Positions 3,704 through 11,254 are shown, counted from the first letter of the stretch. The stretch is 64,000 nucleotides of DNA from Kiritimatiellia bacterium (GCA_040767085.1 JAXGPF010000005.1:8343-72342), one strand, 5' to 3'. Notes: generated from the letters alone by a model not told the origin. Made by a program: numbers and translations.

Positions 3704-4870
3704 GGGTCACACCTAAATTTAAAACTTAATTTTCACTCCTGGCCCCACATTGGTTGCCGGTTGCAGCATGCGATCTACTTCCGCAACCATGCCTTTCAGT
3801 TGCCGGTCAGATCCTAACAATCCAGCCATCTTCCTCAACTGGCGGCCCACCGCAGCGCCGCTCCCCATCCCCAACACCGCCGCCGCCTCGCGTTGCGTTA
3901 ATCCGGCATGCTTGCAGAGACATCGCGCCGCCACCCCGCGCAATACCGAATTCCGCCGACGCTGGCGGAAACATTCCTCCTGCGTTTCAAACACTTTCGA
4001 TAAAACTGCCAAAACCGTCGTTTTATCCACAGCATTTCTGATATTCCTAAAACGAGCATCTTTCGGCTGCCGGCTTTCCGCCACTCGCTTTTGATACAGC
4101 CCGTCCACCCACGCGCAGAATCTTTCGCCGCCTATGCCGTGCGGCGACGCTTTCAGCGCCGCCATCATACGTTCATCCCCTGTCGAACAGCCCACCTCAA
4201 CAAATTTCCGGTAACGTCCAGCACAAAGACGACGATTTGCGCTCATCTCCGTCAAAATCGGTTCATATTCCACAAATTTAAACGCATTGGCCTTACCGAC
4301 ATAACCCGGATAGCTGCTCCATGGATACGCCCGCAGATATCGCAACCGATCCGCCACTGACTTCTTTCGCAGCGCCCCAACCCGCACCGGATTCAAGTGG
4401 ACATACCGTGAAAGCGCCAGTAGATAAGCATCGCCATCAACCAGTTTCGCCTTATAACGGCCATCAAACAAATGCCCATGCCGATGGTGGCGCAAGTTGA
4501 AATAAACCGTGTAGGCCGTCAAAAGCGACTGCATGAATCTTGAGCAATTCCCGGCCGGGGTCTCGAACACCAAGTGAACATGGTTAACCATCAAAACAAA
4601 CACATACAGCCGGATGTTGTACTCCTCCACACGCGTCGCTAGACGTTCCAGGAAACGCGTGCGATCCGCATCATCGAGGAACAGGCGGTTATGCAGCAGC
4701 CAACTTGAGTCGCCATCGGTTCCCGGCGCAGGTGTCTCTCCCAGCATCCGGGCCATAACGTGGTAAATGGCCCCTTTAAATTCAATCCTTAATTGTCGTG
4801 CCATACACTCAATACTGCATATTTTTGCGAATTTTCGAAATATATTATCTTTTAAATTTAGGTGTGACCC
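3704..4870 (-). mobile_element. IS200-like (Y1 / RAYT-like) transposase unit bounded by inverted repeats
   Basis: GGGTCACACCTAAATTT at 3704..3720 is the exact reverse complement of 4854..4870; imperfect A/T-rich extension inward; single transposase gene inside. Confidence 0.55.
3719..4804 (-). CDS. IS200-like Y1 (HUH) transposase with C-terminal DnaA-like HTH domain
   Basis: ORF track 3719..5167 trimmed to ATG 4804 (MARQLRIEFKGAIYHV...); HxH motif VNHVHLV; C-terminal DnaA domain IV-like HTH. Confidence 0.8.
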   Translation of the reverse strand: MARQLRIEFKGAIYHVMARMLGETPAPGTDGDSSWLLHNRLFLDDADRTRFLERLATRVEEYNIRLYVFVLMVNHVHLVFETPAGNCSRFMQSLLTAYTVYFNLRHHRHGHLFDGRYKAKLVDGDAYLLALSRYVHLNPVRVGALRKKSVADRLRYLRAYPWSSYPGYVGKANAFKFVEYEPILTEMSANRRLCAGRYRKFVEVGCSTGDERMMAALKASPHGIGGERFCAWVDGLYQKRVAESRQPKDARFRNIRNAVDKTTVLAVLSKVFETQEECFRQRRRNSVLRGVAARCLCKHAGLTQREAAAVLGMGSGAAVGRQLRKMAGLLGSDRQLKGMVAEVDRMLQPATNVGPGVKIKF

Positions 4871-6785
4871 CGGATGTAGCTGTAACCCGCGAAAGCATGG
4901 CCTGCCCGTCCAGGCGTAGCGCGCCATCCATGGGATAATCCACCGCGAACCAGATGCTGTATGCCCCGGGCGGCAGCGCCATGTCCTGCACGAGGATGAT
5001 CGGCGCCAAATTTCGCAAAGCCCCCTGGAATGCCGGACGGCAGTTGGCCGGGTTGCCGTCAAACGGCGTCCAGGCCAGCCGATCGTTGCAATAAAACCAG
5101 AGCCCGGCATCATGCGCATACGCCGCCACCCACCAGTCCACCTGTATGCCGGCATAGGGTTCGACATGCAGCATGCTCACGGCCAGCGTCAAGGGATCGC
5201 CGGCGCCCAGGCAAACACCATCCCCGGCCAAGCCATTAACCGTGACCAGCGGCCCGACCGGCGCCAGCGTATCCAGGCGCAAGGCGCAGGCGGTGGCGGC
5301 AGGAGCAACGACGGACAGGAAGTAAGTGCCGGTCGCCGGGCATACCCAGTCCAGTTGGTTCATACTCCAATTGGGCGCGCCGGAATTGGCCGCCGGCGCC
5401 AGGCCCAACGACACATCGGCCGCGGCGCAATCGGCGGTGACGCGGTAATAGACGCCGGCACGAGCGGCCAGGGCGAACCGTTGCACGGCGTCGGGAGCCA
5501 GGTTGACGTTGGTCGCGGCGCCCGGCGAAAGCACCGGCATTCTCGGATATCCCAGCGCCTCGGTTGCGCTGATCGCCGCCGCCAGCAAAGCCTGACCGCA
5601 TTGGGTAAATGAATCCGGCCCGGACTCATCCCAAAACGGCAGGCAAACCGTCACCGACACCTCCGTATCGGGATTGTAGGCCATCAGCGAAAGATATCCC
5701 AGGGTAGCGCCGGTATGGCCGAATCCTATGTCCAGCATGTACGCGCAGCCGCAGCCGTAATTGGCGTTGTGGGGCGCCGTGTTGGTTTGCATGAAACGGA
5801 CCATCTGCGCATCGAGGATGTTTTCGCCCCGCATCATGGTGCGGATGTAGCGGTTGAGCGCGGCCAGGGTGCCGTAGCCATTGCCCTCGGCGACATTCGC
5901 GCTGATGTTGGCGTTGGAAGTGATCAGCGTCGCCCCGCCGGGCCGATATTGGACTCCCGGCACGAACGGCGCCGGCAAGGCCGTGTCCGCGGCCAGGCAT
6001 GGAAAGCGTATGGCGGCCAAAGGCACAGTGGCATTCCCGCCAACTACTTGCTCGTGCAGATAATCGGAATAAGTTTTGGGCGCGCCGCAATAAAGCGAAT
6101 AAACCCGGGCGATGATTTCACCAAGGATGGTGTAACCGGTATCGCTGTAATGATAATTCCGGTCCGGGGCGAAAAACTCCAGGCGGTGCAGGGCAACCTG
6201 CCCGACCAGCTCGGCGGCGGTAAACTGGTGTTCCGGCTCCAGGTCCAGGCGGTATGTGACGTAGGGATCGCCGCCGCAGCCTGGGACGGGATCGTTATCC
6301 ACATCATAGACGCCGGCGCTGTGCCGGAGCAGTTGCGCGATGGTGATCTCGTTCTTGTGCGGGATGTTCCAGTTGGTGTCGGCGGGGAGGTAAGGGATGC
6401 TGCTGCCAGGAATACTGTTCGTGATTTTGGCATGGATGTCCAGCAGGCCCTGGCGCTGCAGGCGCAGGATGGCCGCGGCGGTGAAATTCTTGGTATTGCT
6501 GGCAAACCGGAAAGTGGTGTCGGGAGTCAGAGCCTGATCCGGGGCAGCCGCCGAGGAGGCGAAAAAAGTCTCATTGGAAGTTTCCAGGAATACGCTCAGC
6601 GACGGCACGGGAACGCCCAAGGCAGTTTCCAGGCCCAGGCGCACGGCATGCACCGCGTTGCTGACTTTTTCCGCCGGCGCGGGCGTGGCCGCGCGCGCGC
6701 CGCCGCAGACGCACCCAACCGCCGCCAGCGCCGCCACATAATGCGAGGCACGACAAAAGCAGATTCCCCTGGCAATCCAATGCAT
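4845..6785 (-). CDS. serine hydrolase, beta-lactamase family, secreted, with C-terminal extension
   Basis: ORF track; signal peptide; SxxK motif in FRFASNTKNF; last 7 codons and stop lie inside the right inverted repeat of the Y1 unit. Confidence 0.75.
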   Translation of the reverse strand: MHWIARGICFCRASHYVAALAAVGCVCGGARAATPAPAEKVSNAVHAVRLGLETALGVPVPSLSVFLETSNETFFASSAAAPDQALTPDTTFRFASNTKNFTAAAILRLQRQGLLDIHAKITNSIPGSSIPYLPADTNWNIPHKNEITIAQLLRHSAGVYDVDNDPVPGCGGDPYVTYRLDLEPEHQFTAAELVGQVALHRLEFFAPDRNYHYSDTGYTILGEIIARVYSLYCGAPKTYSDYLHEQVVGGNATVPLAAIRFPCLAADTALPAPFVPGVQYRPGGATLITSNANISANVAEGNGYGTLAALNRYIRTMMRGENILDAQMVRFMQTNTAPHNANYGCGCAYMLDIGFGHTGATLGYLSLMAYNPDTEVSVTVCLPFWDESGPDSFTQCGQALLAAAISATEALGYPRMPVLSPGAATNVNLAPDAVQRFALAARAGVYYRVTADCAAADVSLGLAPAANSGAPNWSMNQLDWVCPATGTYFLSVVAPAATACALRLDTLAPVGPLVTVNGLAGDGVCLGAGDPLTLAVSMLHVEPYAGIQVDWWVAAYAHDAGLWFYCNDRLAWTPFDGNPANCRPAFQGALRNLAPIILVQDMALPPGAYSIWFAVDYPMDGALRLDGQAMLSRVTATSGVTPKFKR

Positions 6786-8150: not shown

Positions 8151-9347
8151 ATGCATGAACCCATCCACAACCTGTCATTGGAGCAGTTGGAATCGGCCTG
8201 TTGCGAACTGGGTCAGCCGGCCTGGCGCGCGGCGCAAATCTGGCATTGGCTGTATGTCCGCCGGGCCGGCGCTTGGGATGAAATGCGCAACCTGCCGCGC
8301 TGCCTGCGGGAACAACTGGCCGGCCGCTTCCTCTATGCCGCCGTCCAGCCGGAACAACAGGCCGAAGAAGCGGCGGCCGGCGCCGGCGCAGCCACACATA
8401 AGATCGGCAGCACGCTGGCGGATGGCGAAGTCATTGAAACCGTCCTGATTCCCGCGCCGGGGCGGGGCGGTGCCGGGCGCCAGACTGTCTGCGTATCCAG
8501 CCAGGCCGGGTGCAAGTTTCATTGCGCCTTCTGCGCCAGCGGCCAGGCGGGATTCACCCGCAACCTGTCCGTGGCGGAGATGGTGGAGCAGGTCCTGGTA
8601 TGCGCCCGCCGCCTGAACGCGCCGCCGACGCACGTAGTTTTCATGGGCATCGGCGAGCCGTTGGATAATTACGACAATGTGTTGGCGGCCATCCGCATCC
8701 TCAACCATCCCGACGGGCTGCGGATCGGCGCCCGGCGGATCACCATCAGCACCTGCGGCATCATACCCGGCATTCAGCGCCTGGCCCGCGAGGGACTGCA
8801 GACGGAACTCTCCGTATCGCTGCACGCCCCGACCGACGACCTGCGTTCGCAACTCATGCCGGTCAACCGCCGCTACGGCCTGGCGCCGCTGCTGGCGGCC
8901 TGCCGCGAATATGCCAGCCACACCGGCCGGATCATCACTTTTGAATACACGCTGATTGACAGGCTCAACGCCGCTCCGGAGCAGGCGCGCGCTCTGGGGA
9001 AACTGCTGCACGGCTGCCATTGCCGCGTCAACCTGATCCCGCTGAGCCCGGTGGCGGAGTTTGCCGGGCAGCCGCCGTCCCCGTCGGCCGCCCGGGAATT
9101 CATCCGCATACTCGAGCAGGCCGGGATCAATGCCACGCTGCGCGCATCGCGCGGCGCCGGCATAAACGCCGCCTGCGGGCAATTGCGCTTCACCCGCCGG
9201 GGTGTAGGACAAATTAGTTGGGGTAGTGCGGTGGTAGGGGTACGTAGCGAATTCCGTTCGAAAAGCACGGCGGCGATTTTGGGGCGTCTGTCCGCTACGC
9301 GGCCCCTGCGGGCGGGTTTGCCGGGAGCGGGGCAATCACCAGATTAG
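8151..9347 (+). CDS. rlmN: 23S rRNA / tRNA adenine C2-methyltransferase, radical SAM
   Basis: ORF track; CxxxCxxC as CKFHCAFC; MGIGEPLDN; C-terminal AACGQL. Confidence 0.9.
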   Translation: MHEPIHNLSLEQLESACCELGQPAWRAAQIWHWLYVRRAGAWDEMRNLPRCLREQLAGRFLYAAVQPEQQAEEAAAGAGAATHKIGSTLADGEVIETVLIPAPGRGGAGRQTVCVSSQAGCKFHCAFCASGQAGFTRNLSVAEMVEQVLVCARRLNAPPTHVVFMGIGEPLDNYDNVLAAIRILNHPDGLRIGARRITISTCGIIPGIQRLAREGLQTELSVSLHAPTDDLRSQLMPVNRRYGLAPLLAACREYASHTGRIITFEYTLIDRLNAAPEQARALGKLLHGCHCRVNLIPLSPVAEFAGQPPSPSAAREFIRILEQAGINATLRASRGAGINAACGQLRFTRRGVGQISWGSAVVGVRSEFRSKSTAAILGRLSATRPLRAGLPGAGQSPD

Positions 9348-9479
9348 CCCCGCCCACCGGCGCACCCGCATCCACCCCAAACTTGCCTTGTCTTTTCGAA
9401 CCCCTCGACAAGCTCGGGGAGCGGAATTCGCAACGCGGTGGCCCAATTTCGGCCAGGATGGTGTAACCTGGCCGAAATT
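9247..9479. repeat. structured inverted-repeat element spanning the rlmN 3' end (MITE-like or structured RNA)
   Basis: GCGAATTCCGTTCGAAAAG at 9247..9265 pairs with 9392..9400 plus 9422..9431 (arm split by a 21-bp insert); separate perfect 13-bp stem with 9-nt loop at 9445..9479. Confidence 0.3.
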
Positions 9480-9643
9480 ACCGGAATTTACAGGGTTGTA
9501 TCTATCGCGGAATCATAAATCACACTGAAATCCTCCGTGAAATTAAAGTTTATTCTAATCACCAACAAATTTGTCGTACACCCCCCGCCGCGGCCGGAAA
9601 ACCGGCGTGACACCGCGCAACCGGCATGGTAAAATATTCCACC

Positions 9644-11254
9644 ATGAACCATTGCCTTGCCAGTGTTTACCCCGAGGCGGCCGGCGAATTGCCCCCGGCC
9701 GCCGATCCGGCGGAACTGCCCGCCTACCTGACCGACGAATCGCGCCTGGCCGGACGCGCCGAAAAGATTTTTCTGCCGCGCAGCGAAGCCGAAATCCTGG
9801 CGCTGCTGCGCCGGGAGGATGCAGCGCCCTTGACAATTTCCGGCGGCCGGACCGGCATTACCGGCGGCGCCGTGCCGCGGAACGGCTGGCTGGTCAGCCT
9901 GGAAAACCTGCGCGCCTTCGCCGGCCTGCGGCGCGACCCGGAGCAACCCGGCTGTTTCCGCCTGCGCTGTCAACCCGGCGTGACCCTGGCCGGCATCGTC
10001 GAGGCCTTGGAAACCGGTCATTTCCCGGGCGCGGAAACCTGGCTGGAATCCGACCGCCAGGCGTTGGCGGAACTCCGCCAGGGGCCGCCCTGTTTCTTCC
10101 CGCCCGATCCCACGGAACGCACCGCCAGCCTGGGCGGCATGGTTGCCTGCAACGCCTCCGGTGCGCGCACCCTGGCTTACGGCCCCACGCGGCGTTATAT
10201 CACCGGCCTGCGCCTGGCATTGCCGGGCGGCGCCTTGCTGGCCATCCGGCGCGGCGAACATTGCGCCGCGCCGGACGGCGGCTTCCAGTTGGCGGCCCCT
10301 GACGGCCAGGTCCGCCGCGGCCGCATTCCGGGATACCGTATGCCGGATGTCAAAAACGCCGCCGGGTATTACAGCGCGCCGGGGATGGACTTGATTGACT
10401 TATTCATCGGCGCCGAAGGCACGCTGGGCATTTTCACGGAAATCGAAATCCTGCTGGTTCCCGCCCCGGAAGCCCTGCTGGGCGCTGTGGCCTTCTTCAC
10501 TGACGAACAGCGCGCGGTCGGATTCGTGCAGGCTGCCCGCGCGGCCGCCTGGTCCGGCAGCCGGCTGCTGGCGCTGGAATACTTCGATGCGCGCGCCCTG
10601 GACCTGCTGCGCGAACAGAAACAACGGCAGGGCGCCGGCAGCCCCATTCCCGCGTTGCCGGGCAATGCCGCCACCGCCGTTTATATTGAAATCGCCACCG
10701 CACCCGGCGCCATGGAAGAAACGGCCGAAGCCTTGCTGGCCATGCTGGAAGCCGCTGACAGCGATCCCGACAGCGCCTGGACCGCCATGGACGACGATGA
10801 ATCCATCCGGCTGAAAAACTTCCGGCATGCGCTGCCCGAAGCCGTCAACCAACACATCGGCGAACGCGCCGCAAAATATCCCGGCCTGACGAAACTGGGC
10901 ACGGACTTCGCCGTGCCGGATGCGGCGCTGTCGGCAATCCTGCCGGTTTACCATAACGCCTTGCAGGGGGCGGGCTTCGAATACGTGATTTTCGGCCACA
11001 TCGGCAACAATCACCTGCATATCAATATTCTGCCGCGCGATCTGGAAGAGTATCGGCGGGGCAAGGAACTGTACCTGCAGCTGGCGCGCGCCGCCCTGGA
11101 CCATGGCGGCACGATTTCCGCGGAACATGGCGTCGGCAAACTTAAAACCAACCTGTTGGGGATGATGTTCGGCGCCGACGGCATTGAGGCCATGCGCGCG
11201 GTCAAACGCGTCTTCGATCCCGGCGGCCAGATCAATCCCGGTAACATGTTTTGA
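9644..11254 (+). CDS. FAD-binding oxidoreductase (FAD-linked oxidase, GlcD / D-lactate dehydrogenase family)
   Basis: ORF track trimmed to ATG 9644; FAD-binding and FAD-oxidase C-terminal region (HIGNNHLHINIL). Confidence 0.8.
   Translation: MNHCLASVYPEAAGELPPAADPAELPAYLTDESRLAGRAEKIFLPRSEAEILALLRREDAAPLTISGGRTGITGGAVPRNGWLVSLENLRAFAGLRRDPEQPGCFRLRCQPGVTLAGIVEALETGHFPGAETWLESDRQALAELRQGPPCFFPPDPTERTASLGGMVACNASGARTLAYGPTRRYITGLRLALPGGALLAIRRGEHCAAPDGGFQLAAPDGQVRRGRIPGYRMPDVKNAAGYYSAPGMDLIDLFIGAEGTLGIFTEIEILLVPAPEALLGAVAFFTDEQRAVGFVQAARAAAWSGSRLLALEYFDARALDLLREQKQRQGAGSPIPALPGNAATAVYIEIATAPGAMEETAEALLAMLEAADSDPDSAWTAMDDDESIRLKNFRHALPEAVNQHIGERAAKYPGLTKLGTDFAVPDAALSAILPVYHNALQGAGFEYVIFGHIGNNHLHINILPRDLEEYRRGKELYLQLARAALDHGGTISAEHGVGKLKTNLLGMMFGADGIEAMRAVKRVFDPGGQINPGNMF

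Follow-up and report, generated by a model that had tools for sequence, protein, structure and literature searches.

A 384-bp miniature element with ISKra4-family ends at the rlmN/oxidase junction of a Kiritimatiellia bacterium

In silico analysis of a 64,000-nucleotide stretch of DNA from a Kiritimatiellia bacterium (GCA_040767085.1, JAXGPF010000005.1:8343-72342; this whole stretch, numbered from its first letter, is called the window) has revealed a unit of 384 bp at 9200-9583, at the junction between rlmN and the gene for a FAD-linked oxidase. We surmise that this unit is a miniature inverted-repeat transposable element (MITE) that shares its ends with the ISKra4 family (prokaryotic Mutator-like, p-MULT 4) and integrates upstream of promoters, in this case that of the oxidase gene, a reading to which we assign a probability of roughly 0.85. 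The kind of element is known and no new kind of biology is involved; since MITEs and gene-end chimeras are on record, as is the targeting of promoters by this transposase family, specialists will find little surprise in it. For mobile-DNA biology, the unit represents a non-autonomous derivative with the ends of the little-studied ISKra4 family in Kiritimatiellia. This MITE is apparently undescribed, and we found no description of ISKra4 MITEs or of Kiritimatiellota insertion sequence (IS) elements in the searchable literature.

The insertion at the 3' end of rlmN

The same rlmN/oxidase junction occurs without the 384-bp unit in four related Kiritimatiellia contigs (L001, L002/L003, L048 and L049), where the oxidase gene begins 15-34 bp past the end of rlmN, and the window is collinear with these empty-site contigs apart from 9200-9583. 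The empty junction reads ttcacccgccgcgcggccggaaaaccggcgTGA in L001, and likewise in L002, with the oxidase gene starting 15-31 bp further on, while that of the window reads ttcacccgccg(384 bp)cccgccgcggccggaaaaccggcgTGA. At the protein level, the initial annotation, which had been made from the window sequence only, had remarked that the RlmN tail after the AACGQL motif looked long. Comparison with the four closest orthologues (Kiritimatiellia-type metagenome bins, 356-361 aa, 79-95% identity) agrees with this: AACGQL occupies residues 340-345 of the 398-aa window protein, with 53 residues beyond it vs. 11 in the three orthologues of 356 aa. An exact look-up of this 398-aa product gave no record. 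Of the four orthologues, three end in ...AACGQLRFTRRAAGKPA or a close variant, the closest with FTRRAAGKPA* at 356 aa, and the long tail is not shared. The window gene ends at TAG 9345-9347, inside the unit. Judged from these alignments, 9200-9583 is an insertion into the end of rlmN, with the last six native codons replaced by 48 codons of the element. The old stop and tail are found downstream of the insert, at 9591-9610, as would follow from the element having inserted ahead of them; and because the long tail is read from the insert, the 19-bp repeat arm that had been assigned to the last codons of rlmN sits in foreign rather than native codons.

The initial annotation had drawn an inverted-repeat element at 9247-9479, comprising this arm, a partner arm split by 21 bp and a separate 13-bp hairpin, and our repeat search recovered all three at those coordinates. 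The segment 9247-9255 (GCGAATTCC) pairs with 9423-9431 at 9/9 positions and 9256-9265 (GTTCGAAAAG) with 9392-9401 at 10/10; 9445-9457 is perfectly complementary to 9467-9479, giving a 13-bp stem and a 9-nt loop. The 19-mer arm has a single occurrence in the 64-kb window (chance expectation 0). Although these repeats are real, they make up only the inner part of the element, as all of them fall within an outer pair at 9200-9221 and 9562-9583. This outer inverted repeat of 22-23 nt (9199/9200-9221 and 9562-9583/9584) has 2 mismatches, with 0 chance matches in 100 shuffles, and the terminal inverted repeats of the 384-bp unit, at 22 nt, agree in 20/22 positions. The 21 nt at 9402-9422 do separate the two halves of the partner arm, but they constitute a small side hairpin conserved in the family rather than a secondary insertion. 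On both sides of the 384-bp unit lies CCCGCCG, a perfect 7-nt direct repeat. Open reading frames (ORFs) inside 9200-9583 are limited to the rlmN read-through and one of 46 aa; a tblastn search with an ISKra4 transposase found no transposase similarity anywhere in the 64-kb window, and the unit has no second copy there.

Dispersed copies and ends shared with ISKra4-family elements

Genomes were scanned with the terminal repeat, using one genome per species, and the copies were then compared by blastn and alignment. The scan yielded 35 loci (designated by L numbers). The same non-coding unit, at 77-91% identity, occurs at unrelated loci in sister metagenome-assembled genomes (MAGs) and in one metagenome; three sister MAGs carry copies, two of which also gave empty rlmN sites. 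L036 is a complete copy of 402 bp with 87.6% identity to the window unit, and L022 is an internally deleted copy of 139 bp with a perfect 9-bp duplication. Partial copies are L012 (91%), L013, L035, L026, L018, L010, L030, L004, L031, L021, L005 and L009, many of which stop at contig ends, as repeats that break assemblies would be expected to do. An internal 22-mer scan of metagenomes added nine further contigs, all from one sample (copies L039-L047), bringing the dispersed copies with different flanks to at least 14 loci in the three sister MAGs plus 9 metagenome contigs. Among elements with these ends, duplications of 9 bp flank L022, L023, L027 and L034, with 8/9 positions matching in L013 and 7/9 in L036, and most of the other copies examined sit in non-coding DNA upstream of genes. 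Orthologues sharing the long tail, together with a lack of other copies, had been named at the outset as the result that would speak against an inserted element, and the opposite was found on both counts. The initial annotation had offered a MITE-like insertion or a structured RNA as the source of the tail; the former agrees with the empty sites, the terminal repeats, the duplication and the other copies, whereas the latter, as an independent RNA gene, had no Rfam match.

Our initial hypothesis was that of a Tn3-family-derived miniature element (TIME), since the window copy taken alone can be read as GGGGTGTAGG... (GGGG start) with 5-bp CCGCC on both sides, typical of the Tn3 family. TIMEs are also miniature and non-autonomous, and the ends in the window look G-rich. 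This hypothesis was dropped after the other copies had settled the terminus and the duplication length, and we now regard it as highly improbable, as evidenced by: 1) all four bases, A, C, G and T, occur ahead of GGGTGTA across the 35 loci while GGGTGTA itself is conserved, so the element terminates in GGG and its limits are 9200-9583; 2) complete copies have 9-bp duplications and not the 5-bp ones of TIMEs; 3) the terminal repeat has 22 nt instead of ~38 nt; 4) the gene found beside the same end encodes an ISKra4-family and not a Tn3-family transposase.

That gene came to light in chromosomes of three Pseudomonadales and Azotimanducaceae, where the same terminus leads into the 3' end of a gene. 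The 21 terminal bases of the right repeat, GGGTGTACGACAAATTTGTTG, are identical to the end of an ISKra4-family IS in L025, L027 and L034. The Pseudomonadales chromosome OY764266.1 carries three full, identical IS copies of 1,842 bp bounded by this end, two of the three with perfect 9-bp duplications (CGAGGCGGT and CTTCGATAC), and the 534-aa protein of this IS scores 297.8 bits on NF033572 (ISKra4 family transposase, cutoff 205) vs. 83 bits on the ISLre2 model (cutoff 200). In the Kiritimatiellaeota MAG at L008, the contig opens within a gene that matches the C-terminus of NF033572 over its final 97 residues (E = 6e-26, positions 346-420 of 422) and stops a few codons short of the same terminal repeat, indicating that an autonomous-type partner exists in the phylum. 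In the description of the ISKra4 family by Guerillot et al. 2014 (PMC3942029), inverted repeats span 18-39 bp and direct repeats 8-9 bp; the 22-nt repeat of the window unit falls within the former range, and the perfect duplication of the window copy is only 7 nt vs. the latter. Recognizing that the 22-nt ends of the unit are those of ISKra4-family IS, we postulate that it was most likely mobilised in trans by an ISKra4-type DDE transposase encoded elsewhere in the genome. The family would resemble ISKra4-family IS in terminal repeat sequence, repeat length, 9-bp duplications and fixed distance to sigma-70-type promoters, but the window unit has only 384 bp and no transposase gene, and its interior is unrelated to the IS copies found.

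We also considered whether the unit is a self-splicing intron or similar, removal of which would restore the rlmN frame, given that a coding sequence is interrupted and that 384 nt with heavy structure lies within the range of small group I introns. Against this, no Rfam intron model was matched even at E <= 10, and the orthologous frame is not regained by precise excision that leaves a single repeat copy, as the remnant is 2 nt short and yields no stop. Most other examined copies interrupt no coding sequence, lying as they do in non-coding DNA upstream of genes, and the ends are inverted repeats with target duplications. We give an intron next to no credence and retain the MITE.

Several relatives of the element came up alongside. 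A second non-coding family in the Kiritimatiellae MAG STD1_155 (L006 5288, L023 2143/4210) has the same 22-nt ends, which enclose an unrelated sequence (GGTGATCAGTGGGCAAGGTATTG...); it is represented in full by L023 3785-4210, ~426 bp, with the perfect 9-bp duplication CTTGACACC. L013 5754-6138, L043, L046 and L047 form a sub-lineage in which the right half and the right end have diverged (ATCAAAACAGG...). In MAGs of Paceibacterota, Nitrospirae and Deltaproteobacteria (L019, L028, L032), the same terminal repeat is followed by short palindromic interiors, e.g. CCTCCCCTCCCCTTGCGGGAGGG, suggesting that this IS group has given rise to additional miniature derivatives spread across phyla. An 11-nt string, TTCACCCGCCG, is common to the flank of L026 (212-240) and the rlmN target (window 9189-9199), at a different distance from the element end; an independent hit on the same locus was suspected and then rejected, since the flank turned out to be unrelated intergenic DNA preceding another gene, and the string is a coincidence.

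Register to promoter-like sites

The flanks of all ends were read outward from the element for a -35/-10 pair at offsets 0-39. A promoter-like pair starting exactly 27 nt outside the right end was present in 9 of 20 flanks, vs. one flank for all other offsets together, while 2,000 trials with shuffled right flanks averaged 0.12 such pairs and never exceeded 2. The -10-like hexamer in these flanks lies 16-18 nt beyond the -35-like hexamer, and TTG occurs at offset 27 in 8/18 right flanks, with no other offset exceeding 2. Left ends showed no peak, with one match each at offsets 26 and 27 among 13 flanks; L043 and L044 carry a promoter-like site at a left-type end, and the orientation thus has exceptions. 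ISKra4-group elements with near-perfect repeats are reported to insert a fixed distance upstream of sigma-A promoters, with a spacing of 13-17 nt for ISKra4/TnGBS-type elements (PMC3942029). The same report describes both orientations for such elements, whereas orientation is strongly biased in the MITE family despite its near-perfect repeats. TnGBS/ISLre2 elements (p-MULT 3), with a published spacing of 15-17 nt, belong to a different transposase clade and are autonomous elements or integrative and conjugative elements rather than MITEs.

In the window, a promoter-like site at 9607-9635 starts 23 nt from the right end of the element, and the TGA that formerly ended rlmN lies within its GTGACA -35 hexamer. 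L001, L002 and L049 share this site, which is not conserved in L048. From these data we propose that the family would integrate at a fixed distance upstream of sigma-70-type promoters, as published ISKra4-group elements do, most copies turning their A+T-rich right end towards the promoter and a few having the promoter-like site at the opposite end. The target here would be the promoter of the FAD-linked oxidase gene, at which the element was most likely aimed. As rlmN and the oxidase gene are packed tightly, with the -35 overlapping the rlmN stop, integration, at 18 nt plus the duplication ahead of the -35, would fall within the final rlmN codons. This would sever the native tail AAGKPA* and leave it as the out-of-frame remnant at 9591-9610, and translation would run 48 codons into the element, to the TAG at the apex of a long hairpin.

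Could a real MITE have landed here by chance, intergenic and gene-end sites being merely tolerated? Selection against gene disruption by itself enriches insertions upstream of genes, 11 of the 20 right-end flanks have no clean promoter at 27 nt, the promoters are consensus matches only, and the window copy lies 23 nt and not 27 nt from its -35-like hexamer. Tolerance does not predict a single-nucleotide register, however, with nine matches at offset 27 and one elsewhere in 0-39, and promoter targeting is documented for the transposase family (PMC3942029). We consider a chance position unlikely, and favor a MITE that integrates upstream of promoters.

Several of our observations nevertheless weigh against this preferred reading. 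The window holds one copy and no transposase, so that multi-copy status and the helper are deduced from sister genomes, and what is shared with known IS copies is the terminal repeat and not the interior. The -35 in the window stands at 23 nt rather than 27 nt, and the perfect duplication is 7 nt rather than 9 nt. At 27 nt, the family spacing lies outside the 13-17 nt published for ISKra4/TnGBS-type elements (PMC3942029). Promoter calls are consensus matches only, with the sigma-70 consensus assumed for Kiritimatiellia. Lastly, the compensatory changes in the predicted fold of the interior, as described below, come essentially from two sub-lineages and hence represent few independent events. 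Regarding the spacing in the window, two losses of 2 nt after insertion might reconcile it with the family: if the original duplication was CACCCGCCG, the nine bases to the left of the element, the right flank is without its CA and without a GC present in L001 (23 + 4 = 27); two small deletions in a stretch no longer coding after the insertion seem plausible to us. As to the difference from published spacings, the 27-nt register may be genuine to the Kiritimatiellia lineage, whose elements would then stand off by roughly one additional helical turn.

Flanks of related elements gave additional observations. The second family (L006/L023) has a -35-like hexamer at 27 nt from two right ends, and in the sub-lineage with the diverged right end, L013 and L046 retain a TTG hexamer 27-28 nt away from it. 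With the 1,842-bp IS, TTGACT and TTGCGA lie exactly 16 nt outside the transposase-proximal (left) end in two of the three copies (L025 4262, L027 6677; OY764266.1), a position that agrees with the published 16-nt register, unlike the 27 nt of the MITE. Five related copies displayed no clear promoter register, numbers being too few to conclude. In several right-end flanks, long ORFs begin 60-160 nt outward, consistent with real promoters, although ORF calling is too noisy in this G+C-rich DNA for them to serve as evidence. The family offers a natural set of insertions in single-nucleotide register to -35/-10 elements, and this register could serve for mapping promoters in uncultured lineages and for studying how these transposases read promoters.

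Fold of the interior and consequences at the locus

The interior of the element is predicted to fold strongly, both as DNA (z = -8.9 vs. shuffles, 9199-9584) and as RNA (9236-9484, z = -6.4 for one strand and -7.2 for the other). When the minimum-free-energy structure of the window was counted on an alignment of ten copies over 9236-9484, standard pairs were found in 95.9% of cells, compared to 29-50% with partners slid by 1-3 columns. Both-side (compensatory) changes occurred in 13 pairs, and the covariation score was above all 500 shuffles; examples are GCGAATTCC/GGAATTCGC vs. GTGAATTCC/GGAATTCAC, GTTCGAA/TTCGAAC vs. GTTTGAA/TTCAAAC, and AATTTCGG/CCGAAATT vs. AATTCCGG/CCGGAATT. Since pairing is kept by compensatory changes across copies, the fold appears to be under some constraint. 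Conserved G-T pair columns number 5 on the plus strand and conserved A-C columns 0, a weak hint that the folding strand is the one read from rlmN towards the promoter, but both strands fold equally well in silico. Separately, the site of the side hairpin is hypervariable, with ~27-nt tandem repeats (AAGGCCCTGAGCAGAGTCGAAGGGCTC...) in its place in L041 (~100-185) and L010 (~4790-4890).

The strong folds on both strands, the conserved pairing with compensatory changes and the bias towards G-T columns would also suit a native structured RNA of the rlmN/oxidase intergenic region (a cis-regulatory element or small RNA gene), in which case the long RlmN tail would be an annotation accident. Such an origin is very unlikely in our view. 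The segment is missing at the same junction in four related genomes, and elsewhere, at loci unrelated to this one, the unit is present and bounded by terminal repeats and target duplications. An Rfam scan of 8900-9900 at E <= 10 returned noise only, with implausible families and a best score of 20.5 bits (E = 0.18) vs. a gathering score of 50. Moreover, a conserved fold fits a MITE as well and is no proof of a resident RNA gene. Nor were terminator-like sites detected in 9000-9800: the 13-bp hairpin is followed by ACCGGAATTTACA, with no T-run. With the unit taken as a MITE, its fold could possibly serve in recognition by the transposase or at the DNA level, or act at the RNA level on transcripts reading towards the promoter. 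A bolder proposal, which we find doubtful, is that this is a promoter-homing family in which the branched hairpin is a functional module set at the fixed 27-nt register, possibly an insulator or an RNA-end-forming shield against read-through transcription. If true, operon boundaries would be rewired at every landing site, here by uncoupling the oxidase gene from rlmN, and the targeting geometry would be new for Mutator-like transposases.

Stem-loop MITEs beside or inside gene ends are familiar in bacteria, including Correia/NEMIS of Neisseria, ERIC, RUP and the Rickettsia palindromic elements. Like the window unit, these are small, non-coding and multi-copy, with terminal inverted repeats and a target duplication; they are likewise strongly structured when single-stranded, can extend or alter host reading frames and can occur close to promoters. 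The window unit differs from them in transposase family and sequence, and targeting in promoter register is no general trait of MITEs. The features of the locus are collected in Table 1.

Table 1. Coordinates of the element and neighbouring features in the window
Feature	Position	Strand	Remarks
Chimeric rlmN ORF, 398 aa	8151..9347	+	residues 1-350 native, 351-398 read from the element; radical SAM and RlmN_N domains
Left target-site duplication, CACCCGCCG if 9 bp as elsewhere in the family	9191..9199	.	perfectly repeated part CCCGCCG = 9193-9199
384-bp non-autonomous transposable element (MITE), no transposase gene	9200..9583	+	missing at empty sites L001, L002, L048, L049; copies elsewhere
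Left terminal inverted repeat GGGTGTAGGACAAATTAGTTGG	9200..9221	+	repeat search, other copies
Long branched hairpin including arm 9247-9265 with 9392-9401 and 9423-9431	9238..9440	+	apex ~9330-9350, holds the TAG ending rlmN; pairing conserved in 10 copies
21-nt side hairpin	9402..9422	+	conserved helix (helix 10), variable spot in the family
Perfect 13-bp stem, 9-nt loop, no T-run after	9445..9479	+	three pairs changed on both sides across copies (helix 11)
A+T-rich right subterminal region, ~44% G+C	9480..9561	+	conserved among copies of the family; both strands give weak promoter-like matches
Right terminal inverted repeat, GGGTGTACGACAAATTTGTTGG on the minus strand	9562..9583	-	20/22 vs. 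left repeat
Right target-duplication copy CCCGCCG, 7 nt perfect	9584..9590	.	sequence and alignment to empty sites
Orphaned ancestral rlmN 3' end cggccggaaaaccggcgTGA	9591..9610	+	2 nt short vs. L001, out of frame
Sigma-70-type promoter-like site GTGACA-17-TAAAAT, TGn before -10	9607..9635	+	presumed oxidase promoter; overlaps ancestral rlmN stop
Downstream FAD-linked oxidase gene	9644..11254	+	start by orthology with L002; alternative ATG at 9626

With respect to the host genes, RlmN is intact through the fifth residue after AACGQL, its catalytic core included. Since various tails are tolerated among relatives, activity is probably retained despite the foreign tail of 48 residues. For annotation, the 398-aa "RlmN" is a chimera whose last 48 residues are transposon-derived, with the native stop and tail persisting as a remnant. 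The oxidase gene has kept its own putative promoter, but 384 bp of highly structured sequence now stand between it and rlmN, and any co-transcription from rlmN has likely been lowered. This promoter-like site ends 8 nt before ATG 9644, the oxidase start in the orthologues, a distance so short that the oxidase mRNA would be leaderless or nearly so.

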